Notes under the pieces: generated by a model
Databases searched by the model: none
The model's input: the letters and a program-made list of their open reading frames with translations, nothing else
Told to the model about the DNA's origin: nothing
Part shown: piece by piece, positions 5,536 through 61,266 of the stretch
Position numbering within the stretch: position 1 is the first letter of the stretch
How the letters are laid out: every line of letters starts with the position of its first letter
Translations under genes and position numbers: made by a program
Origin: an uncultured Planctomycetales bacterium
Lineage (GTDB): Bacteria > Omnitrophota > Gorgyraeia > Zapsychrales > CAYRXT01
Reading direction: 5' to 3'
Length of the DNA stretch: 64,000 nucleotides
NCBI GenBank assembly: GCA_964428315.1
Contig: CAYRXT010000005.1
Span: forward strand, 12,592 to 76,591

Positions 5536-5547
5536 CGGAAACAATCC

Positions 5548-7721: not shown

Positions 7722-7760
7722 AAAAAAATCCCCCGCCCGTTACATGGCGGGGGATTTTTC
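7722..7760. terminator. Bidirectional intrinsic terminator between cysK and the DedA-like gene
   Basis: AAAAAAATCCCCCGCC-cgttacat-GGCGGGGGATTTTTC: a 10-bp GC stem flanked by an A-tract and a T-tract, 22 nt downstream of the cysK stop at 7782. Confidence 0.7.
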
Positions 7761-7781
7761 AATTCTTCCTGTAAACGGTGA

Positions 7782-10663: not shown

Positions 10664-10677
10664 CACACGTCTTTCCT

Positions 10678-27306: not shown

Positions 27307-28707
27307 TCATTTTCCAATACAAAATCGAGAAAAGATACTGTCGAGGAGATCCGCGCCGGCATTGCGCCCGGTTATCTGATCCAGTTCCTGGACAGTGGTC
27401 TTAATCTCTTCCGAAACGAACTCCGGAGAGGCCTCTTCCTCCAGCGCCCTGCGGGCCCGGAGCAAAGACTCCCGCGCCCGGTGCAGAGATTGAATGTGCC
27501 GGGCGTTGCTGACCATCAAAGTAAACGTGTGCACCGGACGGCCGTTCAGGACGCACCTGACAATGGCCTCTTCAAGCTCGTCGATTGCCCGGCGCTGTAT
27601 GACAGAAATTCTCACGGTTTCCCGGTCCCCGAAGAGCGCCCCGAGACGGTTCTCGTCGATCTTCTGGTCAAGATCGCATTTGTTCACGGCAATAAGAAGG
27701 TTTTTATCCTTGAGGCGGGTAAAGAGCGTTTCGTCCTCCTCGGTCAAGGGGCGGCCCGCATCCAGAACCAGAAGGACCAGGTCCGCGCTGTCGACGGCCC
27801 GGTGGCTCCGTTTAACGGCTTCCTCCTCGATCAGATCCCGCGGTTCAATAATCCCCGCGGTATCGACCAGCTGGAAAGGCACGCCGCGGAGCTGGGCGGC
27901 CTCTTCGAGCGTGTCGCGGGTCGTACCCGCGAACTCGGAAACGATGGCCCGCGGCTGCCGCAAAAGCAGATTGAGCAAAGAAGATTTGCCGACGTTCGCC
28001 TTGCCGCATATCGCGATCTTCATCCCATCGCGCAGGATCCTTCCCTGCTCGGATGAATCCAGAAGCCCTTCAATGCGCTGAATGGCCTTGCCGGCACGCT
28101 CGTCTAGCTGCCGGCGGTCCGCCGCATTGATTCCATCTTCCGGAAAATTGATAACGGCCTCCAGCTCCACGTAGACCGACATCAAGGCCTCCCTGATCTC
28201 TTCCAGCTCCCTGTTGAGCTCGCCTTTGAGCTGGCTGACACTCACCCTTTGGAAGGCCTCTGTCCGGGACTGGATGATGTCCAAAACGGCCTCGGCCTGG
28301 GTCAGGTCGACACGGCCGTTAAGAAAGGCCCTCCGGGTAAACTCTCCAGGTTCGGCCATCCGGGCGCCGAGCTCAATGGCCAGGTGAAGGATGGAACGCA
28401 CCACCACCAAACCTCCGTGACAGCTGAACTCGACCATATCCTCTTTCGTATAACTTCGGGGGGCGCGCATGACGGTCAAGAGGACTTCGTCGACGGGGTC
28501 TTCACCGCCGGGAGATTTTTTCACCACCCATCCATGATGAACGCTGTGGCTGCGGAACGCGGAGACCGGCTGTCCGTTGCCCGCGCGGAACATCCTTTCC
28601 GCAACAGCCACGGCCTCCGCCCCGCTCATACGGACGATGCCGATGCCACCCTGTCCGACGGGCGTGGATATGGCGGCTATCGTGTCATAGACGGATTCTT
28701 CCGACAT
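27307..28707 (-). CDS. mnmE: tRNA modification GTPase MnmE (TrmE)
   Basis: GKANVGKSSLLN (G1), DTAG (G3), NKCD (G4) and the C-terminal CIGK motif. Confidence 0.95.
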   Translation of the reverse strand: MSEESVYDTIAAISTPVGQGGIGIVRMSGAEAVAVAERMFRAGNGQPVSAFRSHSVHHGWVVKKSPGGEDPVDEVLLTVMRAPRSYTKEDMVEFSCHGGLVVVRSILHLAIELGARMAEPGEFTRRAFLNGRVDLTQAEAVLDIIQSRTEAFQRVSVSQLKGELNRELEEIREALMSVYVELEAVINFPEDGINAADRRQLDERAGKAIQRIEGLLDSSEQGRILRDGMKIAICGKANVGKSSLLNLLLRQPRAIVSEFAGTTRDTLEEAAQLRGVPFQLVDTAGIIEPRDLIEEEAVKRSHRAVDSADLVLLVLDAGRPLTEEDETLFTRLKDKNLLIAVNKCDLDQKIDENRLGALFGDRETVRISVIQRRAIDELEEAIVRCVLNGRPVHTFTLMVSNARHIQSLHRARESLLRARRALEEEASPEFVSEEIKTTVQELDQITGRNAGADLLDSIFSRFCIGK

Positions 28708-30059
28708 AGCACCTCCCTGATCTCCGCGACCACAAAAAGCGAACCACAGACAAGAATCAGATCATCGCGGCCGGCGAGGTCCAGGGCCCTTTCTAGGGCC
28801 TCCTCACTCTCTGCCGCACAAACGATCTCCTTCCCGCTGAAAAACGAAGCCGCCCTCTCCCGACGGTAATCCCAGCTGCGCGGGTGCCGGGTCCGCGTCA
28901 GGACGACCTTGCTGGCGAGGGCCGCCAGGCTCCGGCAAATGGCGGCGACGTTCTTGTCCGCCGAGATGCCCACGATTACAACAACGTCCTTACCGGGGAA
29001 GAGACGCCTGACGGCATCTACCAGCGATTCGACGGAAGCGGCATTGTGAGCCCCGTCGAGAACAACGGGAGGACTGCCGTCAAGGACCTCGAAACGTCCC
29101 GGCCACTGCGTTAAGGCCGCCCCCCGGACAAAGGCCCCGTCCGGGATATCAAGACCTTGCCGGCGCAGGGCACGGCAGAGGCCGGCCGCCACGGCGAGGT
29201 TGATCCTCTGGGGCCGTCCCGCAAGACGGGTCCGGACCTCGAGCGGTTCGGGAAAGATATCCCGCAGAACAACCGTTTGATGCCCGCCGTCTTCTTTCTT
29301 AAGCAGGACATGCCTCCTTTCATCGATAAAAAAGGCGTCGGCCCTGAAGGCCGCGCATCTTTCGCGGATGACATCCATGGCCTCTTTGTCCTGGGGCGCG
29401 ACGACGACGGCCTGGCCCTCTTCTTTAATGATGGCGGACTTTTCCGTTGAGATGGCCTTAAGGGTCGTCCCGAGCTGTCTGGTATGCTCGATGCTGATGG
29501 AGGTCAACGCGCAAGCCATCGACCGGACGGTGTTAGTCGCGTCCAGGCGGCCGCCGAGACCCGTTTCAAGAACAACGACTTCCGCATGACTTTTGGAAAA
29601 ATAGTACAGCGCCAGGGCAGTATAAACCTCGAAATAGGTCAAACGGCCAAGGTCTTGATTGCGTCGGGCCTCTTCGATGCGGGGCCGGATGGCCTCAAGG
29701 GTTGCGCAGAGCTCCGAAGGGCTGATCTGTCCGGCGAAGGGATCAGAAAGCGTCCGCGGATCGTCCTTCCACGCGGGATCGAACAGGCGAATGCGCTCGC
29801 GGAAATCATGCAGATGCGGAGAGGTGTAGAGCCCTGTTTTATAGCCGGCCTGCCAGAGGATGTAGGCCATAAAGGCGCAGGTGGAACCCTTGCCCTTGGT
29901 GCCGGCCACATGGATGAACCGCGTACCTTCCTGGGGGTCGCCGATCAGGGATAAAAGGCGGCGGACGCGTTCCAGGCGGAAAGGGATGAACTCCTGTCCG
30001 CTACGCAGTTCGAAATTAATGAAGGAATCGAGATACTCTTTGGCCTCTTGGAAGGTCAT
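28677..30059 (-). CDS. folC: Bifunctional folylpolyglutamate synthase / dihydrofolate synthase FolC
   Basis: HVAGTKGKGS P-loop and Mur-ligase-family middle and C domains. 31-nt overlap with the mnmE start. Confidence 0.9.
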   Translation of the reverse strand: MTFQEAKEYLDSFINFELRSGQEFIPFRLERVRRLLSLIGDPQEGTRFIHVAGTKGKGSTCAFMAYILWQAGYKTGLYTSPHLHDFRERIRLFDPAWKDDPRTLSDPFAGQISPSELCATLEAIRPRIEEARRNQDLGRLTYFEVYTALALYYFSKSHAEVVVLETGLGGRLDATNTVRSMACALTSISIEHTRQLGTTLKAISTEKSAIIKEEGQAVVVAPQDKEAMDVIRERCAAFRADAFFIDERRHVLLKKEDGGHQTVVLRDIFPEPLEVRTRLAGRPQRINLAVAAGLCRALRRQGLDIPDGAFVRGAALTQWPGRFEVLDGSPPVVLDGAHNAASVESLVDAVRRLFPGKDVVVIVGISADKNVAAICRSLAALASKVVLTRTRHPRSWDYRRERAASFFSGKEIVCAAESEEALERALDLAGRDDLILVCGSLFVVAEIREVLCRKNPSMTR

Positions 30060-30123
30060 ACTTTAAAGGGAAAGGTGCTATTTTATCATGAGAACAGGAC
30101 CCGCACCGTTGCCGGAATGAACT

Positions 30124-31680
30124 TCAATGCCTGAAATGACGCAAGCCTGTCATGATCATGGCTATCCCGGCCTTGTCGGCTGCCCACACCACTTTGGGAT
30201 CCGCGATGGAACCGCCGGTCTGAAGAATGGTCCTGACGCCCGCCCTGGCCGCCAGTTGAACCGTGTCGGGGTGGGGAAGAAAGGCGTCGGAAACCAGGAT
30301 GGAACCTTTGCTTCTTCTGCCGGCCTTTCCTATGGCAATGCGGGCACTGTCCACGCGGCTCGTCTGGCCGCATCCGATACCGACGGTCTTTTCCCCCTTG
30401 ACCAGGATGACGGCGTTGGATCGCACGAATTTCACGACCTTCCAGCCGAAGACCATGGCCTCCCTGTCTCTCGAAGGCGGCCGGCGCCTTGTGACGGCGC
30501 GCCATTCTTCGGGAGACGGACCTCTGTCGTCTTTGTCCTGTAAAAGCATCCCTCCCGAAACCTTCTTCATGTCAAACGACTTTTCCTTTATCTTGTTCAA
30601 GTCAAGCGCAATCAGACGCAGGGTTTTCTTTTGCTCGAGGATGCGTAAGGCCCCTTTGTCGAAGGCCGGAGCAAGCACGCATTCCATAAAACCGCTTTTC
30701 CGGATCGCCTCCGCGGCGACCTTGTCGACCCTGCGGTTGAGCCCGATGATGCCCCCGAAGGCCGACAATGTGTCGCAGGCGTGGGCCTTTGTAAAGGCGC
30801 CGGCCAGCGAGGCGTCCTGCGCCACACCGGTGGGATTGTTGTGTTTGATTACCGCCGCCGCCGGTTTATCGAAAGCACACACGATCGCGGCGGCGGCATG
30901 CAGGTCCAGGATATTGTTGAAAGACAGCTCTTTGCCGTGTAGCTGCTTCATGTCGGGCATGCCTGAAGGCCTGTCTTCGTCCCGGTAAAAGGCCGCGGCC
31001 TGATGAGGATTTTCGCCGTAACGCAGATCCTGGACCTTGGACAAACGCAGGACCAGATCCCTGGGAAGCGTGGAAAATTCACCCTTGCGGAGTTTCTTGT
31101 CGAGAAACTGCAAGATCGTATTGTCGTACTGCGCCGTCAGGCGGAATACATCCAGGGCCAGGCTCACCAGCACCGTGTCCGAGAGTATCCCGCTGTTGAC
31201 ATCCAGCTCGTCGAGAATCTCTTTGTAGCGCTTGGGCGTGCAGACGGCCGCAACGCTGGTGTAGTTCTTGGCCGCCGAACGGAGCATGGCAGGTCCGCCG
31301 ATATCGATATTCTCGATGGCTTCTTCAAGGGGCAGGTTCTTTTTCTGGATGACGCGCGCGAAGGGATACAGATTGACCACCACCATGTCAATAAGCTTGA
31401 TCCCGCTCTCCTCGACTTGCAGCATGTGCTGCGGCCGGTGTCTGAGCGCCAGAAGGCCGGCGTGGACAGCCGGGTGCAGCGTCTTGATGCGTCCATCGAG
31501 CATCTCAGGAAAACCCGTAAAGTCGGAAACCTCGGTCACCGGGACACCCGCGTTGCGGATAAGCCTTGAGGTGCCGCCGGTGGAGATAATCTCGACCCCG
31601 AAACGGTGCAGGCCGCGGACAAAATCTGCCAGACCAGCCTTGTCCGAAACGCTGATGAGGGCGCGCTTGACTTTAATCAT
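30124..31680 (-). CDS. purH: Bifunctional purine biosynthesis protein PurH (AICAR transformylase / IMP cyclohydrolase)
   Basis: N-terminal MGS-like domain (ALISVSDKAG...STGGT) followed by an AICARFT domain; 518 aa. Confidence 0.95.
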   Translation of the reverse strand: MIKVKRALISVSDKAGLADFVRGLHRFGVEIISTGGTSRLIRNAGVPVTEVSDFTGFPEMLDGRIKTLHPAVHAGLLALRHRPQHMLQVEESGIKLIDMVVVNLYPFARVIQKKNLPLEEAIENIDIGGPAMLRSAAKNYTSVAAVCTPKRYKEILDELDVNSGILSDTVLVSLALDVFRLTAQYDNTILQFLDKKLRKGEFSTLPRDLVLRLSKVQDLRYGENPHQAAAFYRDEDRPSGMPDMKQLHGKELSFNNILDLHAAAAIVCAFDKPAAAVIKHNNPTGVAQDASLAGAFTKAHACDTLSAFGGIIGLNRRVDKVAAEAIRKSGFMECVLAPAFDKGALRILEQKKTLRLIALDLNKIKEKSFDMKKVSGGMLLQDKDDRGPSPEEWRAVTRRRPPSRDREAMVFGWKVVKFVRSNAVILVKGEKTVGIGCGQTSRVDSARIAIGKAGRRSKGSILVSDAFLPHPDTVQLAARAGVRTILQTGGSIADPKVVWAADKAGIAMIMTGLRHFRH

Positions 31681-33068: not shown

Positions 33069-34262
33069 TTATTCGGGATCGATGTAGGTGTAGGTATTGC
33101 CGGCGTAATTTCTCAGGACAAGCCGGCCTTGTTCCTTTGATACGACGTAATCCGGGCCGATGGGGATCTTGCCCCCGCCTCCGGGGCCGTCGATGACATA
33201 AGTGGGGACAGCGTAACCCGTGGTATGGCCGCGCAGTTTTTCCATGACATTGATCCCGGCCGCGACGGACGTGCGGAAATGACGGGATCCCGATATCGGG
33301 TCGCACTGGTAAATGTAATACGGCCTGACCCGGATCTTCAGGAGCTCATGCATCAGTTTTTTCATGACGGCGGGCTTGTCGTTGATCCCCTTCAGGAGGA
33401 CCGTCTGGCTGCCCATGGGTATGCCGTGATCGGCGATCAGATCGCAGGCGAATTTGACGCGCTTGGTGATCTCCTTGGGATGGTTAAAATGAATGCTCAT
33501 CCAGACGGGGCCGTTTCTCCGCAGGAGCCTGACGAGGTCTTCGGTGATGCGCTGAGGCAGCGTCACGGGGACCCGGGTTCCGATACGGATGAATTCGACA
33601 TGGGGAATGGCCTTGATATTCCTGAGGATATCTTCGAGCATGTGGTCGCTCAGGGTCAAAGGATCCCCTCCTGATATCAGGACATCGCGGATCTTCTTGT
33701 TGGAACGGATGTAGTCATAGGCGGCCTCATAGGTGGACGGCCTCAGCGTCCTTCGCCCTTCGCCGACCATGCGCGAACGCGTGCAGTACCGGCAGTACAT
33801 GGCGCACATCTCGTTGACCAGAAAAAGGACGCGGTCGGGATACCGATGGACGAGCCCGTGCACGGGAGAATCCTTTTCTTCCCCGCAGGGGTCATCGAGC
33901 TCCTCGGGTGAACGCACCAGTTCATCCGCCTGTGGGATGCACTGCTTGCGAACCGGACAGTTCGGATCTTCGGTGTCCATAAGACTGGCGAAATACGGCG
34001 GGATCGACATAGTCAGCTTTTTGCCGCACCCCTCCACACCCTTCTCCTCCTCGGGGGTCAGCGTGACGAGCCTGGCCAGGATATCTTTTGTGCGGATACG
34101 GTTACGCAGCTGCCAGCGCCAGTCCTCCCAGTCCATGGGCGTCGCGTCCTTATAAAAATTGATGACCCGGTGCTCCTTGGACGTCAGGTGGATTGCCGGC
34201 TGGACCTGCTGTTCAGGCGCGATGTCTACGCCGGTTTTTACCAGATTTTCCGATGGATTCAT
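33069..34262 (-). CDS. kamA: Lysine 2,3-aminomutase (KamA family radical SAM)
   Basis: CAMYCRYCTRS (CxxxCxxC), PLP-binding region, 397 aa (KamA length rather than EpmB/YjeK). Confidence 0.85.
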   Translation of the reverse strand: MNPSENLVKTGVDIAPEQQVQPAIHLTSKEHRVINFYKDATPMDWEDWRWQLRNRIRTKDILARLVTLTPEEEKGVEGCGKKLTMSIPPYFASLMDTEDPNCPVRKQCIPQADELVRSPEELDDPCGEEKDSPVHGLVHRYPDRVLFLVNEMCAMYCRYCTRSRMVGEGRRTLRPSTYEAAYDYIRSNKKIRDVLISGGDPLTLSDHMLEDILRNIKAIPHVEFIRIGTRVPVTLPQRITEDLVRLLRRNGPVWMSIHFNHPKEITKRVKFACDLIADHGIPMGSQTVLLKGINDKPAVMKKLMHELLKIRVRPYYIYQCDPISGSRHFRTSVAAGINVMEKLRGHTTGYAVPTYVIDGPGGGGKIPIGPDYVVSKEQGRLVLRNYAGNTYTYIDPE

Positions 34263-35284
34263 TGGCCTTTCTCCTTTTGCTGACCGTTGTGCAAACCGTT
34301 GCGCTCAAGTCCGCAATGAATAATCCGGTGGATCATCTGTTCATAGGTCTGCCCCATGCAGCGGGGAATGTAGCTGAAAACATCTTCGAGGGCCAGGCAC
34401 GGCAGGGGGTTGATCTCCAGGACATAGGGCCGCCCATCCTCGTCGACCCGGAAATCCACCCGGCCGAAGTCACGGCACTCCACGCTGCGGTAGACCCTGA
34501 GTGCCAGTTCCTGCAGTCTCCGGGCCATATCGTCCGGGATCCCGGCCGGACAGACATAACGAAGGTTATCCGATGAAATCCTCTCAAACGTATAAAAATC
34601 GTCGCCCAGGTCAGTCTTCCCGTCGATCTGCACCTGCACAACGGGAAGGGCCTCGGGCGGCTCGTTGCCCACCACCGCAACCGTGAACTCCGTTCCGCGG
34701 ATGAACTCCTCGACCAGGGCGGACTGCTTATAGACGCGGGTGATCAGCTCGACCTGCCGGAGGAGTTCTTCGTGGTTCGTTACCCGGGAACGCGCGGACA
34801 ATCCTTTGGACGAACCTTCGGCACGGCATTTCACGATCAGGGGAAATCCAATCGTGTTCAGGTCTTCCAGCCCCCTCGTGCTTCCCGCTTCAAAAAAACG
34901 GGGCGTCGGAATGCCTTCGGCCAAAAAAAACTTTTTGGCCATCACTTTATCCAGGGTGATCCCCAGGGTCAAGGCGTCGGATCCTATGTACGGGATGCCG
35001 CGCATTTCCAGGATCAGCGGCACCTGGGATTCCCGGTTGCGCCCCCCGGCACCCTCGGCGAGGTTAAAGACAATATCCACGTCCAGCCCGTCGATCTGCT
35101 GGATCAGGTTCTTCACGTTCCCTATGCGTTTGACGAGAAAACCGTTGGTTTCAATGGCGGCGGCGAGGTCATCGATGACTCTAGGCGGGTCGAATTCGGC
35201 GTTGATGTCGCAGGGATCGCCCGGACGGGGATTCCAGTCGGTCTTAAGATCGTATGTCAGGCCAATGATTCTCTTTCTTTCCAT
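34259..35284 (-). CDS. ATP-grasp ligase, D-alanine--D-alanine ligase (Ddl)-like
   Basis: Ddl-like N domain (RIIGLTYDL...), central ATP-grasp (FPLIVKCRAEGSSKG...EEFIRGTEFTVAVV) and C-terminal Mg/ATP site (DFGRVDFRVDEDGRPYVLEINPLP). ATGA overlap with kamA. Confidence 0.8.
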   Translation of the reverse strand: MERKRIIGLTYDLKTDWNPRPGDPCDINAEFDPPRVIDDLAAAIETNGFLVKRIGNVKNLIQQIDGLDVDIVFNLAEGAGGRNRESQVPLILEMRGIPYIGSDALTLGITLDKVMAKKFFLAEGIPTPRFFEAGSTRGLEDLNTIGFPLIVKCRAEGSSKGLSARSRVTNHEELLRQVELITRVYKQSALVEEFIRGTEFTVAVVGNEPPEALPVVQVQIDGKTDLGDDFYTFERISSDNLRYVCPAGIPDDMARRLQELALRVYRSVECRDFGRVDFRVDEDGRPYVLEINPLPCLALEDVFSYIPRCMGQTYEQMIHRIIHCGLERNGLHNGQQKEKGQ

Positions 35285-35297
35285 GGACAAAAAAACA

Positions 35298-42528: not shown

Positions 42529-42945
42529 TCAGTCTCCAATCACTTTGATTAAGGCGCGCTTGCGCCGGCGCCCGTCGAATTCGCCGTAAAATATCTGTTC
42601 CCACGGCCCGAAATCCAGCCGGCCCTTGGTGATGGCGACAACGACTTCCCTCCCCATGACCTGCCGTTTCATGTGCGCGTCGGCATTGTCCTCGCCGACG
42701 TTATGGCGGTATTGGGATACCGGCTCGTGGGGGGCAAGCCTCTCCAGCCAATCGTCGTAATCCTGGATAAGGCCGCTCTCGTCGTCATTAATGTAGACAC
42801 TCGCGGTAATATGCATGGCGTTCACAAGGACAAAACCCTCTTTCACACCGCTTTTGTCAACGGCCTCCTGGACTTTCCCGGTAACGTTGATGTAATCCCT
42901 TCTTGTCTTTGAATTAAACCAAAGCTCTTCGCGGTAGCTTTTCAT
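42529..42945 (-). CDS. YjbQ-family protein (UPF0047; secondary thiamine-phosphate synthase)
   Basis: 138 aa; YjbQ fold consensus ([25 protein letters not shown]...[15 protein letters not shown]). Confidence 0.75.
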
Positions 42946-53095: not shown

Positions 53096-54160
53096 CTACC
53101 TGTGCCTCTTCAGGTCAATAAGGTCCTTGATCATGGCCATGTCCTTTTTCAGATCCTGAACCACCTGCCGGAGATCCCTGACCCTCTCCTTAAGATGGAC
53201 GTTGGTCTCTTCAAGCTCTTTGATCTGAAGGGTCAGGGCCTCCACGGGGAGCGGAACGGCCAGTTCGGTTTCTAGTCCGGCAATCGCCGTTTCCACCTGC
53301 CCGATCTCGCCCTCCAAGGCTTGCCTTTCTTCTTCCAGGCGATCCTTCTTCTCGCGCGCCTCCTCGAGCGGCCGCTCCTTACGTTCGACACCTCTCTGTA
53401 TCTCCTCCTTGAGCTTCTCAACTCTTCGGCTCAATCGCGCATTGTCTTTACGTACCCGGCTTATCTGTCTCGCGAGCTTTCGATTCTCGTTCTCCAGCTT
53501 TCTCAAATCCTCATCCGATAAAACCCCCTGCCGGATATCCGCAAGGAGGTCCTGTCCAGCCGCCGCCTGGACGGCATCCGTCTCCAGGATCCTGTTTTGA
53601 ATCTTCGCGATCTCTTCCTGCGTCTTTCCGAGAGCCTGTTGTTTTTCCGACAGCAACCGGCTATGCTGTTCCTCGAGAGCGGCATGCTTTTTTTCCAAGG
53701 TCTCCACCTGTGTGCTCAACGGCAGGAGTGTCTTTTTCTCGTGATCGACCTTATCGCGAAGCCGGCCGACCTCTTTCTCAAGGACTCTCCTTTTGAGTTT
53801 GAGTTCATGAACCGTCGCATTGTGCGTCTGCCGGGAATCCGGTTCGGGTGAAGACGGCAGCACGGGCTTCCTGATCTGCGGCATAAGAAGATCAATCTCC
53901 ATTTCAAGCGCAAGGACCTGCTGTCTCAAGCGGTTGTGCTCATCCGTCAGCCTCTCGTTCTCATTGACCAGCTGAAGGGCCAGCTCTCTCAGCTCTCTGA
54001 CATTCATCCGGAGGATATTGGCGACCCATTCCGAGGGAAGGGCGAATTCTTCCTGAACCTCTGCGCCTTCGGGTGAACCCGAAGGCGCGGTCTGCGCCGA
54101 AACGGCGGCGGAAAAACATAAAAACAGGCCGCACAGCGTGAGGATACGGTGTCTCTTCAT
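53096..54160 (-). CDS. Secreted coiled-coil protein (hypothetical)
   Basis: Signal peptide MKRHRILTLCGLFLCFSAAVSAQTA followed by ~300 aa of continuous E/K/R/L/Q heptad-like sequence. Confidence 0.55.
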   Translation of the reverse strand: MKRHRILTLCGLFLCFSAAVSAQTAPSGSPEGAEVQEEFALPSEWVANILRMNVRELRELALQLVNENERLTDEHNRLRQQVLALEMEIDLLMPQIRKPVLPSSPEPDSRQTHNATVHELKLKRRVLEKEVGRLRDKVDHEKKTLLPLSTQVETLEKKHAALEEQHSRLLSEKQQALGKTQEEIAKIQNRILETDAVQAAAGQDLLADIRQGVLSDEDLRKLENENRKLARQISRVRKDNARLSRRVEKLKEEIQRGVERKERPLEEAREKKDRLEEERQALEGEIGQVETAIAGLETELAVPLPVEALTLQIKELEETNVHLKERVRDLRQVVQDLKKDMAMIKDLIDLKRHR

Positions 54161-54217: not shown

Positions 54218-55066
54218 TCATCGGCGATCTGATCTGAGCGCGTTTCGAACCAGGCGCCGGTAGTCTCCCGCCAGGGCGCGCGTATATTGTCCCGCGCGCC
54301 CCTTTCCGACGGCAAAACCCTGCACGCGGGTCAAGGGCATCACCTCGATCAGGGCATTCGTCAAAAAGGCCTCATCCGCGTCAAAAAGCTCTTCCGGCCT
54401 CATACGCTTCTGCCGGACGCGAAGGCCCCTCTCGCGGGCGAGCCTGATAACCAACCGGCGCGTTATACCGTCCAGACACCCGCTCGACAAAGAGGGCGTC
54501 ATGAGAATTCCGCTCTTAAGAACAAAAATATTGCTCCGGCTGGCCTCCGCCAGAAAACCCTTGCGGTTGAGCACAAGGGCCTCGTCCTGTCCCCGCTGAC
54601 GGGCCTTTCGCCAGGCCTGCAATAGAGGGAGGTACCGGATGGACTTGATCCGGACCAGCGGAGAATCCTCGTCGCGCCGGATATCGGAAAAGACCGCACG
54701 GTAACCGCGCTTATAAACCGCCGGGGACGGCGGCTGATAAGATGCGGACATAACCGCCAGTCGCGCCCGCTTGCCTTCCTGCCAAACCGTCAAACGGACG
54801 CGGGCGTCTCCCCGAGCGTGCTTCCCGAGGATCTCTCCCAAGAATTCCCTGATCTTCCGGCGGGGATAAGGACACGGCAGTCCAATGACTTCAAGTCCCT
54901 TCATCATCCGGGCAAGGTGTTGTTCCAGCGCAAAGGGCATACTCCGGTAAACCCGCAGCGTCTCAAAAACCCCCTTGCCGCGCAAGATTCCCGGCGTGAG
55001 CCTCCGGACAAGAGACGGCGCGGGGCGCATCATCAGCCCGTCAATCAACAAAGATTTTTTCGCCAT
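54218..55066 (-). CDS. pabC: Aminodeoxychorismate lyase (PLP fold-type IV, PabC-like)
   Basis: Fold-type IV aminotransferase core (GVFETLRV...SNIFVLKSGILMTP...GITR); positioned directly after pabB with a 26-nt overlap. Confidence 0.75.
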   Translation of the reverse strand: MAKKSLLIDGLMMRPAPSLVRRLTPGILRGKGVFETLRVYRSMPFALEQHLARMMKGLEVIGLPCPYPRRKIREFLGEILGKHARGDARVRLTVWQEGKRARLAVMSASYQPPSPAVYKRGYRAVFSDIRRDEDSPLVRIKSIRYLPLLQAWRKARQRGQDEALVLNRKGFLAEASRSNIFVLKSGILMTPSLSSGCLDGITRRLVIRLARERGLRVRQKRMRPEELFDADEAFLTNALIEVMPLTRVQGFAVGKGRAGQYTRALAGDYRRLVRNALRSDRR

Positions 55067-56495
55067 GGTCCGTTATGGGAAGGGCGTTCTTATAAACCTC
55101 CTGCAGACACAAAAACAGGGCCCGGGCCTTGATCAGTGTCTCCTCGTATTCCAGCTCGGGGTCCGAATCCGCGACGATGCCCCCGCCGACGTGAAATGTG
55201 GCCCGCCGGTTCTGAACGGCCAGCGAACGGATGAGGATGTTGAGGTCCATCGAACCGGTAAAACTGATGTAGCCCATCGAACCCGTATAAAACCGCCGGG
55301 GCGCGGGTTCGAGTTCCTGGATGATCTGCATCGCGCGGACCTTCGGACACCCGGTTATCGATCCCCCCGGTGAACAGGCCGCGATCAGGTCAAAGCAGTC
55401 TTTATGCGCTCCGAGCCGCCCCTCGATCTGGGACGTCGTCTGAAAGACCGTGGCGTATCTCTCCAATGTGCGCAGGTTTTTTACCCTCACCGAACCGTAT
55501 TCACAGATCCGTCCCAGGTCGTTACGTTCAAGATCGGTGATCATCAGAAGTTCGGCCTTGTCTTTCAAGCTCTCCCATAACTCCCGGCGCAGTCTTTCGT
55601 CCTCGGACCGCCGCGCGTCCCGGCGGCGCGTCCCTTTCATGGGCCGGGTATGGATCCGCCGGCCGCGCAATCTTAAAAACCGTTCGGGAGAGGCGCTCAG
55701 AAGCTGAAAATCGCCGCCGTGAAAATATCCGGCGAAACAGGAAGGCGACACTTTCCTTAACTGCCGATAAAACATGAAGGCATCCGTGTATTCCGTCGAG
55801 GAGGGCAGCGAAATGGTGAACTCCCTGGCCAGGTTGACCTGATAGACATCGCCCCGTCCGATGTGTTCCAGGGCCCTTCCCACTGATTCCATGTATTGCG
55901 CCTTGCTCATGCCGGCCCGCCAGGAAAGCTGGCGGCAGTCCGTATGAAACGCTTCTCGGCCGGATGCGTCAAACGGGGCATCCCTCCTTTGCGTTGCCTC
56001 TCTGACGACAGCCTCCGCCTCTTCAAGACGCCTCCGGGCCCGCACACCGGCGAGCATATGGTCTTTCTCAGGCAGACCCGTGGAGTAGATGACAAGTTCT
56101 CCTGTCATATGATCGATCATGATCACTCGGTCGTAGAACCCGAAGGCCAGCGCGGGGATTAAAAACCCCGGGTCGCGGCGCGGCCTCAGTCCCTCAAGCT
56201 GGATCCCGAAATCGTAACCGAAAAATCCCGCGATCCCCGCCGGAAATAACGGACCAGCCTTCCTGAAGTGCCCGCGGTACTCCGCAAAATGTCCTCGGAG
56301 TTCATCGAAGACGCCCAGGGCATCACCCCTCACCGTCAAAAAGGGATCAAATCCGATAAAAGAATAGCGCCCAAGCCCCGACCGGCGGAGACTGCTCTCA
56401 AAAAAGAACGCGTAAGGCTTGTCCTTCAGGGATTCAAACAGCTTTATACCGTCAACCGGACACCGGAATCTTTTTTCAAAGACGCGCAGGGACAT
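55041..56495 (-). CDS. pabB: Aminodeoxychorismate synthase component I (chorismate-binding enzyme, PabB/TrpE family)
   Basis: Chorismate-binding C-terminal domain (PGGSITGCPKVRAMQIIQELE...RFYTGSMGYISFTGSMDLNILIR...HVGGGIVADSDPE); start at MSLRVFEK 56495. Confidence 0.85.
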   Translation of the reverse strand: MSLRVFEKRFRCPVDGIKLFESLKDKPYAFFFESSLRRSGLGRYSFIGFDPFLTVRGDALGVFDELRGHFAEYRGHFRKAGPLFPAGIAGFFGYDFGIQLEGLRPRRDPGFLIPALAFGFYDRVIMIDHMTGELVIYSTGLPEKDHMLAGVRARRRLEEAEAVVREATQRRDAPFDASGREAFHTDCRQLSWRAGMSKAQYMESVGRALEHIGRGDVYQVNLAREFTISLPSSTEYTDAFMFYRQLRKVSPSCFAGYFHGGDFQLLSASPERFLRLRGRRIHTRPMKGTRRRDARRSEDERLRRELWESLKDKAELLMITDLERNDLGRICEYGSVRVKNLRTLERYATVFQTTSQIEGRLGAHKDCFDLIAACSPGGSITGCPKVRAMQIIQELEPAPRRFYTGSMGYISFTGSMDLNILIRSLAVQNRRATFHVGGGIVADSDPELEYEETLIKARALFLCLQEVYKNALPITDHGEKIFVD

Positions 56496-56496
56496 T

Positions 56497-57315
56497 TTAT
56501 TCCTCCAAATGCACAATGCGGTCGACGCGGAATTCCCGTTCCTCACGCCGAAGATGACAGAACCCGACCAGTACGGTCCGGCGTCTTTCCCGGACGATCC
56601 TTATGGGCGATACGCGCCGCACCGTCCGCGACCCGTAATACGGAGAGAAATACGTCATGTTGACCGGTCTGTCTTCACGGATGGCGCGGTTCAATATGTC
56701 CATCGTCAACTTTTCTTTCTGCGCGGTGTGAGACGTATAGCCGAAATGCGCCGCGAGGTCCTGGATGTCGTTGATCTTTCTCTCCCCCGCCAGGCTCAGC
56801 AGGGGCGCAAAGATCTCATATGTCAACATGACATCGGACATCGCCCTGTGTGTCTGCTGTTGCACGGCCCCGAAAAAACGGGCGACCACCGCCAGGGAGT
56901 AACGCCCCAGTCCTGGGAGCAGGAGCCGGGCCATCTTCAGCGTATCGATCACGGGGGCCTCCAGATCAAGGCGGCCGCCCGTCAGCGACAGCTCGCTGTT
57001 CAAAAAGCCCACGTCGAACCGCGCGTTATGCGCCACCAGGCACGCCCCTCGGGCGAACGCCAGAAACCGCGGCAGGACTTCATCCGCCGCCGGGGCCCCG
57101 TCCACCATATCCTGGGATATGCCGTTGACGGCCATGGCGCCGGGAGAAATCAGCCGCCGTGGATTGACCAGGCTCTCAAATCGCCCGACGGGTTTCATCT
57201 TCTTCAGGCGCAGCCCCGCGATCTCGATGAGCCTGTCGCCCCATCTTGGCGATAGCCCGGTCGTCTCCACGTCAAAGATCACGAACTCGGTGTTATGGAT
57301 GGGATCCCCTTTCAT
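56497..57315 (-). CDS. DnaQ-like 3'-5' exonuclease (DEDDh) fused to a C-terminal WYL domain
   Basis: Exo I FVIFDVETTGL, Exo II LVAHNARFDVGFL, Exo III HRAMSDVMLT. C-terminal RRVSPIRIVRERRRTVLVGFCHLRREEREFRVDRIVHLE matches the WYL consensus (R-V-P...WYL-GYCHLR...R-FRLDRI). Confidence 0.75.
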   Translation of the reverse strand: MKGDPIHNTEFVIFDVETTGLSPRWGDRLIEIAGLRLKKMKPVGRFESLVNPRRLISPGAMAVNGISQDMVDGAPAADEVLPRFLAFARGACLVAHNARFDVGFLNSELSLTGGRLDLEAPVIDTLKMARLLLPGLGRYSLAVVARFFGAVQQQTHRAMSDVMLTYEIFAPLLSLAGERKINDIQDLAAHFGYTSHTAQKEKLTMDILNRAIREDRPVNMTYFSPYYGSRTVRRVSPIRIVRERRRTVLVGFCHLRREEREFRVDRIVHLEE

Positions 57316-58217
57316 GAGTCGACCCGGCTTACGGCATAAACGGGTTCCAGATGCGTGGGGCAAAACGACAGTTTGGCCCGGCTGACCGCGGGCATGGCAA
57401 AATCGTCCATGGCGTTAATGAAACAGAAATCCCTCAAAACCGGATCGTCACAGAATTCCCGGAAGATGAACGTCGCCGCCCCTTTAAGCGACGGATCGGC
57501 GATCTCGAAGAGCACGCAGAATGTCGTGCTGTTGAGGGGGAAACCGAAGGTGTAGGCCCTGATGTCGCCCCCGACGGAAACCGTCCGGCCCTCAAGCCCC
57601 AGTTCCCGGCAAGACGTCATGGCCAGTTCGTGCACGCGGCGATTTTCGTCCAGCATGGCCCGAAAAACCGGATCCGCGATGCGCTGACGCTTAACGTCCG
57701 CCCACCGGTCATAGAGCGCCAGGCATTCCTCCTTCCGGCCGCCGTCGAACACGGCGTACGCGATATCTTCCTGCCTGGCGAAAACATTATAGTCGCCGCG
57801 TCTTGACTTGAAGGCGTTGCCCCGGAGTCCGGCGACATCCCGCCTGTAATAAACGAATTCATATCCCCTTTTATAAATCCGGAACTCTCCCCCGTTGCAA
57901 CACGCCAGCATGCCGCGCGGGACGTTCTCAATGCGCCCCGCGGAAGAGAGCGGGGCCATCGCCTTTAACCGCATGAGGCCCGCCGCCAGGACGCGCGGAC
58001 TCACCTCACGGCCGAGGGGCGGGAGGTAAAGAAAGACGCCCCCGTCGCTCTCGGCCATAAGACATAAACATCCCTCAATCATCTCCAGCCCGTAAGAAAA
58101 GAAATCTTTCCAGAGAAAGATGTTCGCGAAAGAATAGCCCGAAAGCGGCCGTCCGGTTGCGTCGAGAAACTCTTCGATATCTTCTCTGGCCTCCCAGAGA
58201 TCCGCTTCCGCGATCAC
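57312..58217 (-). CDS. DUF2156 / LPG_synthase_C-like protein (GNAT-fold, aminoacyl-tRNA-dependent transferase-like)
   Basis: FANIFLWKDFFSYG and LMAESDGGVFLYLP resemble the C-terminal aa-PG synthase domain of MprF/LysX. GTG start with a 4-nt overlap with YkgJ; ATGA overlap with the exonuclease gene. Confidence 0.5.
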   Translation of the reverse strand: MIAEADLWEAREDIEEFLDATGRPLSGYSFANIFLWKDFFSYGLEMIEGCLCLMAESDGGVFLYLPPLGREVSPRVLAAGLMRLKAMAPLSSAGRIENVPRGMLACCNGGEFRIYKRGYEFVYYRRDVAGLRGNAFKSRRGDYNVFARQEDIAYAVFDGGRKEECLALYDRWADVKRQRIADPVFRAMLDENRRVHELAMTSCRELGLEGRTVSVGGDIRAYTFGFPLNSTTFCVLFEIADPSLKGAATFIFREFCDDPVLRDFCFINAMDDFAMPAVSRAKLSFCPTHLEPVYAVSRVDS

Positions 58218-58759
58218 GCTTCACCCGCAATCCGAATCCCTTCAATCTTGAAGAGATATTCCAGTTCGTCTTCATATGCGGCATAGTCCCCGGCCAGCGA
58301 CCTGTTATCTCTAAGATAGGCGAGGATGTCTTCACCGCAAAAATATTTCCGCAGATATTCGACGTGGCCCATGAATTTCGGAGACTGCCGGAAATCCCGG
58401 ACATAAGGACAGTGCCGGTGCACGGCGACCTCAAAATCACCTCCATGGCGCACCAGAAGAAAAGGATAGAAGCGGCATTCGAAAGGCCGCGTCCTGTAGA
58501 TCTGGCAGAGGTTATCCTCCGGCGAAAGAAAACCGCAGAGACAGCCTCCCCCGGCACAGCCGCGGGCGCGGACCCTCTCATCCGGTCCGGCCGCGGATGA
58601 TCCCTTGAACATCTCGCGGGCCAAAGGGTTCTGCTCGAGGATTCTCTTTTCCGACGGTGTCAACCGCGGGCGCCAGACAGAATCGGCCTCCTTGAAACGG
58701 CAGCACCCTTCGCATGAAAGGCAATACGCCTCTTCTACAAACTGTCTGAGTTCATCCAT
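58214..58759 (-). CDS. YkgJ-family Fe-S/zinc cysteine-cluster protein (second copy in window)
   Basis: CLSCEGCC (CxxCxxCC) plus CRFKE, CAGGGCLCG and HCPY Cys/His ligands. Start at MDELRQ ~58759; the track start is further upstream. Confidence 0.6.
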   Translation of the reverse strand: MDELRQFVEEAYCLSCEGCCRFKEADSVWRPRLTPSEKRILEQNPLAREMFKGSSAAGPDERVRARGCAGGGCLCGFLSPEDNLCQIYRTRPFECRFYPFLLVRHGGDFEVAVHRHCPYVRDFRQSPKFMGHVEYLRKYFCGEDILAYLRDNRSLAGDYAAYEDELEYLFKIEGIRIAGEA

Positions 58760-58760
58760 T

Positions 58761-59177
58761 TTATTGTCCGATATACTGGACGGCCATCCTGCGCCGGCGG
58801 GAACGGTTGTCGAAATCGACGAAGACGATCTGCTGCCACGTGCCCAGGACAAGATCTCCCCCGCTAACCGGAATGGTGATTGAAGGCCCGACCACGGATG
58901 AGCGCAGATGCGAATGTCCGTTGCCGTCATGCCATGTCTGGTCGTGATGGTAGCGCCCCGGAGGGATCAGCTTGTCGAAGAGTTCGGGGATATCCTTGAT
59001 GAGACCCGGTTCAAACTCGCAGGTCGTGACAGCCGCGGTGGACCCGATCGCGCTGACGGTCACGATCCCCTCCCGGATCTTCGCCTGCTGGACGATTTCC
59101 CGGACGTCGGCTGTCACGTCCCTGACATCACCGCGGCCTTTGGTGTCGAATTCGATATATTCTGTTTGACTCTTCAT
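58761..59177 (-). CDS. YjbQ-family protein (UPF0047), second copy
   Basis: 138 aa; IVTVSAIGSTAAVTTCEFEPGLIKD...LVLGTWQQIVFVDFDN. ~35% identical to the copy at 42529..42945. Confidence 0.75.
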   Translation of the reverse strand: MKSQTEYIEFDTKGRGDVRDVTADVREIVQQAKIREGIVTVSAIGSTAAVTTCEFEPGLIKDIPELFDKLIPPGRYHHDQTWHDGNGHSHLRSSVVGPSITIPVSGGDLVLGTWQQIVFVDFDNRSRRRRMAVQYIGQ

Positions 59178-59190
59178 GAGTATATGCCCC

Positions 59191-59511
59191 TCACCTGACC
59201 GGACTCCCCGTCTTGACGTCCGCGTCCGGCTGAAGGACGCGGATCCCCGTGTCGTCCTGGGCCGCCAGCAGCATGCCCTGGGACACCTCGCCTCGGATCG
59301 TGGCCTCTTCCAGATTATTGATAACGACGATCTTGCGTCCGGTCAGCTCTTCCTTCGTGTAATTCTGCCGGATGCCGGCCACCAGCTGTTTGTCTTCTTT
59401 TCCCGTATTGACCTTGAGGACATAGAGTTTATCCGCGTTGGGATGGTCCTTCACCTCCGTGATCTCGGCCACAACAAGTTCCATCTTTTTAAAATCGTCA
59501 AGAGTGACCAT
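59191..59511 (-). CDS. csaA: CsaA/Trbp111-like tRNA-binding protein (EMAP/Myf OB-fold domain)
   Basis: LDDFKKMELVVAEITEVKDHPNADKLYVLKVNTGKEDKQLVAGIRQNY...KIVVINNLEEATIRGEVSQGMLLAA is the tRNA-binding OB-fold of MetRS C-terminus/CsaA. AAAGGGG SD; the upstream part of the track ORF is read-through. Confidence 0.75.
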   Translation of the reverse strand: MVTLDDFKKMELVVAEITEVKDHPNADKLYVLKVNTGKEDKQLVAGIRQNYTKEELTGRKIVVINNLEEATIRGEVSQGMLLAAQDDTGIRVLQPDADVKTGSPVR

Positions 59512-59629
59512 GGGGGCCCCTTTCTTTGGCGCGTTGTTGTTCAGACCGTTTCTTCCAGAAACGTATTTTAACATAGCGCCGCCGCAAATGAAAACACTTC
59601 TCCAGTACGAAAATCCCCGCGGACAATCG

Positions 59630-59658
59630 TTGTCAAAGTTTCCGGCCTCGGATATAAT
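59630..59658 (+). promoter_or_regulatory. Near-consensus sigma70 promoter TTGTCA-N17-TATAAT
   Basis: The -10 box ends ~6 nt before the GTG start of gene 59665..61266. The same AT-rich 140-bp region also serves the divergent csaA operon. Coordinates +/-1. Confidence 0.5.
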
Positions 59659-59664
59659 GGGCCC

Positions 59665-61266
59665 GTGATCCGAAACAGGATAATCTTCCGCCCTGAACTG
59701 CGCGTTTGGTGCCTGGTGCTCCTGGCGGGCATTCTCATCCTCGGGCCATGGCTCTTTTTCCAGGGCGAACTCTCGCAGGGCGATCACGGGCGCGACCTGT
59801 ACGCCTTCGAGCGGACGCTCAATGGCGAAAGACCTTACCGGGATTACTGGTGGGTTTATGGCCCCCTCATGCCCTATGTCTTTGCTGGCTTCTTCGGCCT
59901 TTTCGGGATCCATGTCTCCAGTGTCCTGCTGGCGCAGTACCTCTTCACGCTTGCGGCCGGCCTGCTTTTCTACGCCTGCGCTTCACGGCTGACGCGGCGC
60001 CCGACGGCCGTCATCGCGACCTTATGGTTCTGGGTCACGCCGTCCTATTTTTTCCACACATACAACCACACGGCGGGGCTCGCCTTCCTATTTGCCGTAC
60101 TGCTGGCCGCGCTTCGCTTCCGGCAAAGCGGCGGCAGGGCGGATATCCTCTTAGGCTTCCTTGGCGTGTTCGGGCTGTGCCTGGTCAAACTCAACATCGG
60201 GCTCGGGGTCTTCCTTGCCTACGGTATCGCCTTGTCTCTTCTCCGGCCGAAGGGTGCTCCCTTTCCGGCCAAAACGTTTTTTTCTGCCGGACTTTTAACG
60301 CTCGCAGTGACGGCCGGGATTTACGCCTTTTTTTTAAAGGACCTGCCGCTCTACGCGGTCAGGCAATGCATGCCGTTCTTCCCCTCCGACCGGCCGTTCA
60401 ACACATCACTGGTCGAATCGATTCTTGGATACCTGAAGGTCTTTGTCCTAGGCGGAACCTTCGCCGATATCCCGCACCTGCTCTTCCGGTTCATCCTCAT
60501 GGCGGCCATCGTCCGTTTAGGCCTCCTGTTTCTTCGAAAACGGTCCCACCCCTCCACCAGCGGGGTCATTCGAACAAGCGCGGCCCTTCTCGTCTTCGCC
60601 CTGGTCAATATGCACGAATTCTTTGCCAGCGGGGTCTTTTACAGGACATACTGGGCGGGGGGATCTCTCACGCTCCTGGGGTTTTTTCTTATAGACCGGG
60701 CCATGGCCGGTGCTCCCCGCAGACTCATGGCCGCCGTCACCCTTATCCTTCTCTGTCTCATCGGATGGCAGGCCAAAGACGTCTTCCTTTTCACCGGGCG
60801 TTTTATAGGGAAGAGAGAGCATTCTTTCGGATTTCGGCGTGCCGGGATTTATGTCGGCAATTCTCCGCTGTGGATCCGCACGGTCGGCCGCACGGCGCAC
60901 TTCCTTGAGGAAAACCTGCGGCCGGGGGAAACCTTCTTCGCGCTTCCCTATGATCCCCTCTACTATTATCTCCTGAGCCGGAAAAGTCCGACCCGCCAGC
61001 TCATATTCTTCGAACACATCAATATCACGCCAAAGCAGGAACGCGAGATCATCCGAGAGCTCCGGAGAAAAGAGATCCGCTTCATCCTCCTTTCCAGTCT
61101 GGCGTTTTCCGACCAAAGGGGGAACGGCCTCTTCGGGAGAGACTACTGCCCGCTTCTGGCGCAGTACATACAAGACAATTTTATTCTGACAAAGCGATTC
61201 GGCGAATGGCGAAGACAGCCCCGTTGGGCCTGGCCTCACGGGACAATGATTCTGGAGAGAAAATAA
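59665..61266 (+). CDS. Polytopic membrane protein, GT-C-like (ArnT/PMT-type glycosyltransferase-like)
   Basis: ~12 predicted TM helices with an N-terminal acidic loop (ELSQGDHGRDLYAFE) and a C-terminal soluble region. GTG start directly after the -10 box (possibly leaderless or starting later). Confidence 0.5.
   Translation: MIRNRIIFRPELRVWCLVLLAGILILGPWLFFQGELSQGDHGRDLYAFERTLNGERPYRDYWWVYGPLMPYVFAGFFGLFGIHVSSVLLAQYLFTLAAGLLFYACASRLTRRPTAVIATLWFWVTPSYFFHTYNHTAGLAFLFAVLLAALRFRQSGGRADILLGFLGVFGLCLVKLNIGLGVFLAYGIALSLLRPKGAPFPAKTFFSAGLLTLAVTAGIYAFFLKDLPLYAVRQCMPFFPSDRPFNTSLVESILGYLKVFVLGGTFADIPHLLFRFILMAAIVRLGLLFLRKRSHPSTSGVIRTSAALLVFALVNMHEFFASGVFYRTYWAGGSLTLLGFFLIDRAMAGAPRRLMAAVTLILLCLIGWQAKDVFLFTGRFIGKREHSFGFRRAGIYVGNSPLWIRTVGRTAHFLEENLRPGETFFALPYDPLYYYLLSRKSPTRQLIFFEHINITPKQEREIIRELRRKEIRFILLSSLAFSDQRGNGLFGRDYCPLLAQYIQDNFILTKRFGEWRRQPRWAWPHGTMILERK

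Follow-up and report, generated by a model that had tools for sequence, protein, structure and literature searches.

Conserved pairing of a YkgJ cysteine-cluster protein with a predicted DUF2156 aminoacyl-tRNA transferase in a seven-gene operon of Omnitrophota

The window analyzed here is a 64,000-nucleotide (nt) stretch of contig CAYRXT010000005.1 (positions 12,592 to 76,591 of the forward strand; assembly GCA_964428315.1), deposited as an uncultured Planctomycetales bacterium and assigned by its GTDB lineage to the Omnitrophota. At window coordinates 54218-59511, which are used for all positions below, seven genes lie head to tail on the minus strand and encode a tRNA-binding protein, a YjbQ paralog, a YkgJ cysteine-cluster protein, a DUF2156 protein, a DEDDh exonuclease with a WYL tail, PabB, and PabC. 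This tightly packed block is a real, translationally coupled operon, tighter than the local norm. The account that we favor, by a modest balance of the evidence, is a composite operon: a core of YkgJ and DUF2156, a Trbp111-like partner in Omnitrophota, co-transcribed para-aminobenzoate (PABA) genes, and optional passengers. The genes for the tRNA-binding protein, YkgJ, and DUF2156 look like the functional unit, and the exonuclease and PABA genes appear to be optional neighbors. YkgJ and DUF2156 behave as one enzyme, because many relatives fuse them into one chain.

The junctions, in gene order, are +13, +1, -4 (GTGA), -4 (ATGA), +1, and -26 nt, exactly the overlaps and short gaps described in the original prediction, an annotation made from the letters of this DNA alone. 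Forty-two other co-directional junctions of the contig are looser (median gap 38.5 nt; ≤13 nt in 36%); against this norm, six consecutive junctions of ≤13 nt have P ~0.002. Tight spacing recurs in other species, with median junctions of -7 nt from YkgJ to DUF2156, -6 nt from DUF2156 to the exonuclease, +3 nt from the exonuclease to PabB, -2 nt from DUF2156 to PabB where these adjoin, and -1 nt from PabB to PabC.

For the species survey, one genome per species was scanned, which gave 80 loci with DUF2156 identities of 36-47%; the genes at these loci were mapped by tblastn with the seven window proteins. DUF2156 homologs at 40-48% identity come almost exclusively from Omnitrophota metagenome-assembled genomes. 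Order and strand are common throughout: tRNA_bind, YjbQ where present, YkgJ, DUF2156, the exonuclease where present (with or without WYL), PabB, and PabC. Presence was counted at loci with enough flanking sequence, 75 on the upstream side and 56 on the downstream side. YkgJ lies directly upstream of DUF2156 at 72/75 loci (96%), and a tRNA_bind gene is found within 4 kb upstream at 64/75 (85%). On the downstream side, PabB and PabC were each found at 45/56 loci (80%), the exonuclease at 39/56 (70%), and its WYL tail at 10/56; YjbQ occupies its operon position at 16/75 loci (~21%). The order of the genes beyond the operon is also kept (secreted coiled-coil protein, Lrp/AsnC regulator, class I/II aminotransferase, TPR protein, second YjbQ, PfkB, Era), and the plainly unrelated ones among them give the background synteny: Lrp at 36/50 loci, the aminotransferase at 35/50, and the TPR protein at 32/50 (64-72%). 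Only YkgJ and tRNA_bind stand above this background; the exonuclease and pabBC are comparable to it. On the DUF2156 tree, gains and losses of the exonuclease, WYL, YjbQ, and pabBC are scattered. The gene order, then, is not unique to this genome and recurs in ~80 Omnitrophota species at ~40% protein identity. The core that had been proposed, a triad of DUF2156, exonuclease, and CsaA, did not hold: the exonuclease is absent from ~30% of the species loci, and the constant partner of DUF2156 is YkgJ, which had been treated as a bystander and is instead adjacent nearly everywhere and often fused.

In-frame YkgJ::DUF2156 fusions with no intervening stop occur at 10/80 species loci, in about seven separate places on the DUF2156 tree. 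A profile of the fusion protein searched against 1.84 billion representatives gave 6078 matches, of which the top 150 clusters (50% identity) were examined; 63 of these 150 representatives are full-length CxxCxxCC+DUF2156 fusions. Ten longer relatives were tested, and eight proved to be YkgJ::DUF2156 alone and two had LPG_synthase_C as the sole significant family, so that no other fusion partner domain was present among the ten. No description of a DUF2156 protein obligately paired with or fused to a cysteine-cluster domain was found among the papers searched that name DUF2156 or its Pfam family PF09924. With the most divergent fusions as seeds, a scan of metagenomes returned >538 relatives, and the best 80 loci were analyzed. 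Seventy-six of these come from a different set of lineages (median GC 0.59), and uninterrupted fusions were found at 72/75 of the metagenome loci in which both halves were detected. At the same 76 loci, no tRNA_bind, exonuclease, PabB, or PabC gene lies within ~8 kb; the neighbors are a hybrid histidine kinase, a lysine-aminomutase-like radical SAM enzyme, a dCTP deaminase, and a CbbQ ATPase. One fusion, labeled Nitrospirota, likewise stands alone. Because the divergent fusion loci lack pabBC and the exonuclease, the YkgJ-DUF2156 enzyme is independent of both, and the tRNA-binding gene is an Omnitrophota-specific partner.

Some neighbors of the divergent fusions may be recorded separately. The lysine-aminomutase-like radical SAM gene is an opposite-strand neighbor at 43 loci, and the window itself carries, at 33069-35290 (minus strand), a D-Ala-D-Ala-ligase-like ATP-grasp gene and a lysine-2,3-aminomutase-like radical SAM gene with a 4-nt overlap. 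On a metagenome contig of non-Omnitrophota type (L089, positions 4395-10184), a PIG-L-family deacetylase, an MFS transporter, a 3-nt gap, a YkgJ::DUF2156 fusion, and an overlapping LarA-like protein form a tight string. An aminoacylated glycoconjugate or glycolipid would be a fitting product at this single locus, where a deacetylase that exposes a sugar amine is joined by a transporter.

YkgJ (58214-58759, minus strand, 181 aa) scored 29.9 bits against Pfam CxxCxxCC (PF03692; cut-off 23). A word-index search returned 26 relatives, too few for mapping the family. Across 26 orthologs, C13, C16, C19, C20, C75, C85, C95, C117, and H114 are invariant. The predicted model (pLDDT 90.3) had no match to any solved fold. 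By analogy with two characterized proteins, YkgJ probably carries an iron-sulfur (Fe-S) or zinc center. The flagellin lysine N-methyltransferase FliB, the only characterized protein with a PF03692-like N-terminal cysteine motif and likened to YkgJ by that motif, has eight conserved cysteines and an essential [4Fe-4S] cluster (PMC8598068); it differs in being SAM-dependent and much longer and in its CX4CX3CC spacing. In the arginyl-tRNA-protein transferase ATE1, arginylation is modulated by an oxygen-sensitive Fe-S cluster held in an N-terminal CxxC...CC domain (PMC9884297), and this small cysteine-rich domain precedes an aminoacyl-tRNA-dependent GNAT-fold transferase, the layout of YkgJ::DUF2156. 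The resemblance to ATE1, a eukaryotic enzyme whose acceptor is a protein N-terminus, is architectural only; no relationship by sequence or family is detectable. A second, stand-alone YkgJ/CxxCxxCC protein (148 aa) is encoded at 2602-3048 (minus strand), next to an AdoMet decarboxylase-like gene (2029-2514, minus strand) and a ThiS/ThiG/ThiH/ThiF thiamine thiazole cluster (~3429-6147, plus strand); YkgJ paralogs thus number at least two in this genome, and only one of them is tied to DUF2156.

The DUF2156 protein (57312-58217, minus strand, 301 aa, GTG start) is free-standing and soluble, with a maximum 19-residue Kyte-Doolittle hydropathy of 1.19. Its original assignment was upheld by the Pfam hidden Markov model (HMM) LPG_synthase_C (PF09924), with 69.3 bits against a cut-off of 27.5 over profile positions 9-297 of 298. 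Searched against the Protein Data Bank (PDB), the family profile matched 2HQY at 4.5e-37. The fold was tested not on the window protein but on a fusion relative 41% identical to it, whose predicted model (pLDDT 91.8, pTM 0.72) shows a tandem (double) GNAT fold. Foldseek placed 2HQY first (TM 0.85), followed by MprF synthase domains (E ~1e-10 to 1e-12); further matches were Orf14 (2WPW), the aminoacyl-tRNA-dependent peptide synthases Sba18/Sbb17, and FemX, with other acetyltransferases also present. The structural neighbors of known function are mostly aminoacyl-tRNA transferases (MprF, Sba18/Sbb17, FemX). The most conserved motif is a basic helix between the GNAT halves, residues 131-149 (LRGNAFKSRRGDYNVFARQ), equal to helix 306-321 in the fusion-relative model. 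Position 137 is K in 78/81 sequences and position 140 is R in 81/81, and K or R also predominates at positions 132, 139, and 148. The window protein and 61/81 orthologs lack the canonical acetyl-CoA pyrophosphate motif Q/R-x-x-G-x-G/A. The modeled fold points to a DUF2156 protein that is predicted to be an aminoacyl-tRNA transferase.

Characterized DUF2156 enzymes are, to our knowledge, membrane-anchored (MprF), fused to a tRNA synthetase (ErdS), or stand-alone (ErgS, VlmA). MprF (4V34-4V36, 5VRV, 6LV0) shares the Pfam family, the tandem-GNAT fold, and the basic helix between the GNAT halves; the window protein differs in having no N-terminal flippase/membrane domain and no transmembrane segment, identity is 12-15%, and MprF has no YkgJ cysteine-cluster partner. 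Closer in form are the fungal ergosteryl-glycine synthase ErgS and Streptomyces VlmA (seryl transfer to isobutylhydroxylamine), both soluble, of ~300-400 aa, and of the same Pfam family. ErgS carries out aminoacyl-tRNA-dependent aminoacylation of a sterol (PMC8913301) and VlmA that of a small hydroxylamine (PMC9379638); in both, aminoacyl-tRNA of the cellular pool acylates a non-glycerolipid acceptor (PMC8913301, PMC9379638), and neither has a cysteine-cluster partner or an adjacent tRNA-binding protein. The basic inter-GNAT helix is required for aminoacyl-tRNA use in characterized DUF2156 enzymes (PMC8913301), and aminoacyl-tRNA is used by every characterized PF09924 member (PMC7334510, PMC8913301, PMC9379638). 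The closest solved structure, 2HQY, is a soluble DUF2156 protein of Bacteroides thetaiotaomicron; R140, E238, and K282 are kept even in it and the other Bacteroides homologs, E238 and K282 being the predicted active-site residues. The Bacteroides gene differs in its setting, since it adjoins an Acetyltransf_9 GNAT gene and has no YkgJ, tRNA_bind, exonuclease, or pab neighbor. In Bacteroides (L082, positions 6001-7948), the 2HQY homolog is always followed by the Acetyltransf_9 (Eis-like) gene, and one database protein of 478 aa (P0206) carries the DUF2156 and Acetyltransf_9 domain sets on one chain.

Cysteines C52, C165, C234, and C256 of the DUF2156 protein do not vary across 27 close Omnitrophota homologs; Bacteroides lacks three of the four. 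As metal ligands shared with YkgJ they were rejected: they are 67-87% conserved among the fusions, some of which lack three. Judged by this conservation, they are probably not essential metal ligands.

The first gene of the operon (59191-59511, minus strand, 106 aa) encodes a tRNA-binding OB-fold protein matched by Pfam tRNA_bind (PF01588) with 99.4 bits (cut-off 27, E 1.2e-28). The NCBIfam model metG_C_term (TIGR00399) scored 108.4 bits, just under its cut-off of 116.65, and the best PDB matches were the methionyl-tRNA synthetase (MetRS) C-terminal domain 1MKH (2.2e-30), Trbp111 (1.3e-20), and YgjH (3.3e-20). The gene had been named csaA. The CsaA chaperone models fell short of their cut-offs (TIGR02222, 54.5 of 119.65 bits; the best PRK10089 model, 83.6 of 150 bits), and CsaA structures matched no better than 5e-8 and 1e-6, whereas the MetRS C-terminal domain reached ~2e-30. 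The CsaA label was therefore dropped in favor of a Trbp111/MetRS C-terminal-type protein, a predicted tRNA binder by sequence; the persistent link of a tRNA-binding protein to the DUF2156 enzyme, at 64/75 loci, stood. It resembles Trbp111, the MetRS C-terminal domain, and E. coli YgjH as a stand-alone OB fold of ~106-111 aa and differs from Trbp111 and YgjH in that the Omnitrophota gene is genomically tied to a DUF2156 enzyme. We know of no such link to a DUF2156 gene for either Trbp111 or YgjH.

The mechanism, the aminoacyl-tRNA dependence, the metal center, and the acceptor are all put forward as proposals. The DUF2156 protein would take the aminoacyl group from a charged tRNA whose acceptor arm would be held by the conserved basic inter-GNAT helix, and would pass this group to a hydroxyl or amine of a soluble or membrane-surface acceptor. 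The Trbp111-like protein may help tRNA capture in trans, as the fused AspRS does in fungal ErdS, and the Fe-S (or zinc) center of YkgJ may shape the acceptor site or make the activity redox- or oxygen-sensitive, as in ATE1. PabB and PabC would make PABA for folate, and the DnaQ/PolC-type exonuclease, with its nucleic-acid- or ligand-binding WYL tail, and the YjbQ paralog would be optional passengers sharing the transcript. A wider reading is offered tentatively: YkgJ::DUF2156 may be a new class of Fe-S-regulated or Fe-S-dependent aminoacyl-tRNA transferases, a counterpart of ATE1 in layout that is widespread in uncultured bacteria, to which Omnitrophota recruited a dedicated Trbp111-like subunit and whose product would be an aminoacylated lipid, metabolite, or protein. 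In its most adventurous version, the acceptor in Omnitrophota would be the amine of PABA or aminodeoxychorismate supplied by the genes downstream.

Aminoacyl-tRNA transferases draw charged tRNA away from translation for the making of cell-envelope lipids, peptidoglycan bridges, degradation signals, and antibiotics. If the YkgJ-DUF2156 family is active, it would add a redox- or metal-linked branch to this tRNA-dependent chemistry, give a first functional handle on the large uncharacterized YkgJ family, and point to a new aminoacylated product of the sparsely cultured phylum Omnitrophota. The locus also carries a caution: judged by its tight packing and phylum-wide synteny alone, PABA synthesis and the exonuclease would have been linked to the transferase.

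PabB (55041-56495, minus strand, 484 aa) is an aminodeoxychorismate synthase component I-like protein, with matches to Chorismate_bind (295.7 bits, 4e-88) and Anth_synt_I_N (1e-18) and 314.8 bits against TIGR00553 (pabB), just under the cut-off of 328.4. The nucleophilic lysine of PabB sits in a P-I/M-K-G-T motif, where TrpE has Ala; the PabB-type motif PMKGT, at residues 285-289, is invariant in 60/60 orthologs. PabC (54218-55066, minus strand, 282 aa) is a class IV pyridoxal phosphate (PLP) enzyme (Aminotran_4, 197.5 bits, 3.7e-58) that reached no NCBIfam equivalog cut-off: it scored 148.3 bits against the aminodeoxychorismate (ADC) lyase model PRK07650 (cut-off 308) and 154-162 bits against branched-chain aminotransferase (BCAT) models, also below their cut-offs. 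The PDB matches were BCAT (8e-34), D-amino-acid aminotransferase (1e-24), and ADC lyase (7.5e-22). Because it is coupled to PabB (median junction -1 nt) and three Omnitrophota species (L019, L036, L044) have in-frame PabB::PabC fusions, the enzyme is most likely the ADC lyase PabC. The pair resembles known PabB-PabC systems in the PabB-type lysine, in the overlapping class IV PLP enzyme that follows, and in the fusions; it differs in that the operon has no pabA (glutaminase), both proteins fall below the NCBIfam equivalog cut-offs, and PabC is nearer BCAT than the solved ADC lyases. Elsewhere in the window, PurH (30124-31680), a FolC-like folylpolyglutamate/dihydrofolate synthase (28677-30059), and MnmE (27307-28707) stand in a row on the minus strand (27307-31680), with a 31-nt overlap between FolC and MnmE; MnmG lies at 8711-10681. 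MnmE is a folate-dependent tRNA-modification GTPase, and since it adjoins FolC, a folate-tRNA gene coupling exists elsewhere in the window.

The exonuclease-WYL protein (56497-57315, minus strand, 272 aa) matched Pfam RNase_T with 128.5 bits (4.7e-37). The WYL domain (PF13280), as originally assigned, was confirmed by HMM at 60.1 bits (cut-off 21.8, E 2.1e-16; residues 221-287 of the long open reading frame), and this part matched PafBC and PafC in the PDB. The DEDDh motifs FDVETTG, HNARFD, and HRAMSD correspond to Exo I (DxE), Exo II (D), and Exo III (Hx4D); the catalytic residues D15, E17, D101, H156, and D161 are all present and are invariant in 52 orthologs, with an alignment gap in one at H156/D161. 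The top NCBIfam matches were DEDD exonuclease, PolC, DnaQ, and DinG models, and the PDB matches were the PolC exonuclease 2P1J (1.6e-27), E. coli epsilon (1.8e-18), and also ExoX and DinG; no RNase T or Orn chain in the PDB was matched at E ≤ 0.001. The label of an RNase T/Orn-like tRNA 3'-end trimmer, for which the protein had been a candidate, was accordingly withdrawn, and by its sequence the exonuclease, an optional member of the cluster, belongs to the DnaQ/PolC group of DNA proofreaders.

The YjbQ paralog (58761-59177, minus strand, 138 aa) scored 96.7 bits against TIGR00149 (cut-off 67.75) and 119.8 against Pfam UPF0047 (cut-off 27, E 9e-35). A second YjbQ/UPF0047 paralog lies ~16 kb downstream (42529-42945, minus strand) and is followed by PfkB and Era; it is ~28-38% identical to the operon copy and is the only regional YjbQ in most Omnitrophota.

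Several findings weigh against the composite operon with its three-gene unit. All 80 syntenic genomes belong to a single phylum, so inheritance contributes to the conservation. The tRNA_bind gene is the most conserved of the set (53-70% identity among orthologs at the species loci), has the loosest junction (median gap after it +48 nt), and is absent beside 76 of the best 80 divergent-fusion loci; it may therefore serve translation in general, for instance as a MetRS beta-like subunit, and simply happen to stand first in the operon. For the DUF2156 protein, we infer aminoacyl-tRNA dependence from fold and family alone. At the sequence level its family profile fails to recover MprF structures (E >1), the relation being one of fold and Pfam membership, and its structural neighbor Orf14 (2WPW), a tandem GNAT, binds acetyl-CoA. 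The last two points also speak for an acyl-CoA-dependent (or otherwise supplied) tandem-GNAT acyltransferase with a redox-active YkgJ, next to which tRNA_bind would be an unrelated translation factor. This alternative would explain why the profile reaches 2HQY only, why other acetyltransferases are among the fold matches, why the Bacteroides homolog adjoins, and is sometimes fused to, an Acetyltransf_9 GNAT without a tRNA-related neighbor, and why the divergent fusions have no tRNA_bind beside them. We nevertheless regard it as unlikely: after 2HQY, the MprF synthase domains outrank any acetyl-CoA enzyme by fold, the basic inter-GNAT helix typical of aminoacyl-tRNA transferases is the most conserved motif, the CoA-pyrophosphate motif is missing from the window protein and most orthologs, and the characterized PF09924 members all use aminoacyl-tRNA (PMC7334510, PMC8913301, PMC9379638). 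Slightly less likely still, in our view, is that no functional unit exists beyond YkgJ-DUF2156 and that the block is a stretch of a long, vertically inherited, co-directional housekeeping string whose overlaps are due to genome compaction. The same order does run on through unrelated genes, from the coiled-coil protein to Era, in many species, and about one third of the contig's other junctions are also ≤13 nt; the run of six tight junctions is nonetheless unusual, tRNA_bind is retained at 85% of loci against 64-72% for the background, and genes that are not co-transcribed have normally lost their order once protein identity is down to ~40%.

The single pathway tied to PABA synthesis, as originally predicted, stood in two parts, the coupled operon and the tRNA-binding gene beside DUF2156, and fell in its links to pabBC and the exonuclease, which comparison with background synteny and with the distant fusion homologs shows to be weak. 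In its strongest form, PabB and PabC would make ADC or PABA and YkgJ-DUF2156 would aminoacylate the aryl or allylic amine with Trbp111-delivered aminoacyl-tRNA, giving an N-aminoacyl-PABA-type metabolite or a modified folate precursor. This is consistent with pabB following DUF2156 or the exonuclease at median distances of -2 and +3 nt, with the presence of pabBC at 45/56 loci, with Sba18/Sbb17 among the fold neighbors, and with tandem-GNAT aminoacyl-tRNA transferases that use small-molecule amine or hydroxylamine acceptors, namely VlmA (PMC9379638) and Orf11, DhpH, and PacB (PMC12945691). We hold it improbable, since pabBC are missing at 11/56 loci that retain tRNA_bind-YkgJ-DUF2156 (with or without the exonuclease), are kept about as often as the unrelated Lrp, aminotransferase, and TPR genes, and do not occur within ~8 kb of 76/80 divergent fusions; FolC and PurH in the window show folate use, so ordinary PABA synthesis explains pabBC. 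The tight junction into pabB in most species leaves room, beyond the presence and absence counts, for a functional tie, which again tells against a PABA pair that is merely co-transcribed. The exonuclease half of the prediction would fare best if the module acted on tRNA itself, with the Fe-S and GNAT parts modifying a base as in Elp3, the Trbp111-like protein presenting the tRNA, and the exonuclease trimming or repairing its 3' end. A tRNA-binding protein, an Fe-S-type domain, a GNAT fold, and a 3'-5' exonuclease do share one tight block, the exonuclease follows DUF2156 with a median 6-nt overlap at the 39/56 loci that have it, and WYL domains of some relatives bind single-stranded nucleic acid. 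This possibility is very improbable given that the exonuclease groups with the PolC and epsilon DNA proofreaders rather than with RNase T or oligoribonuclease and is missing from ~30% of Omnitrophota loci and 76/80 divergent-fusion loci, that YkgJ is no radical-SAM (CxxxCxxC) domain and has no counterpart among solved folds, and that the window holds no tRNA genes or RNA motifs.

The remaining features of the operon region are as follows. All seven family assignments exceed the Pfam gathering scores, and no transmembrane segment was found in any of the seven proteins. Gene calls on the identical public contig agree with those used here, the exception being a tRNA_bind start 21 codons further upstream (127 vs 106 aa). 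A sigma-70-like promoter candidate upstream of the first gene (59565-59594, minus strand) reads TTTTCA-18-TAAAAT with an upstream TG and matches 9/12 positions, by consensus match alone; a second promoter-like site (54198-54170, minus strand) falls within the 57-nt gap after pabC. Promoter-like sites in the region are not more numerous than the shuffled expectation, and both candidates are only suggestive. Rfam gave no riboswitch or T-box match in the whole window or in a permissive search of the leader (59400-59750), and no tRNA genes were found in the window.

Upstream of the operon, at 59665-61266 on the plus strand, a divergently transcribed 533-aa multi-pass membrane protein is encoded that has only a weak match to PMT_2 (GT-C glycosyltransferase); its homologs occupy the same divergent position at 36/57 Omnitrophota loci with enough upstream sequence. 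Downstream, at 53096-54160 on the minus strand, a 354-aa protein has a signal-peptide-like N-terminus, a long coiled coil, and no Pfam family. In at least 26 species this coiled-coil protein immediately follows pabC or the exonuclease; it also has a promoter-like site of its own. Many of the syntenic genomes (L001, L003, L005, and others) were deposited as "uncultured Planctomycetales bacterium"; their gene order and identities match the Omnitrophota loci, and these record labels may be imprecise.

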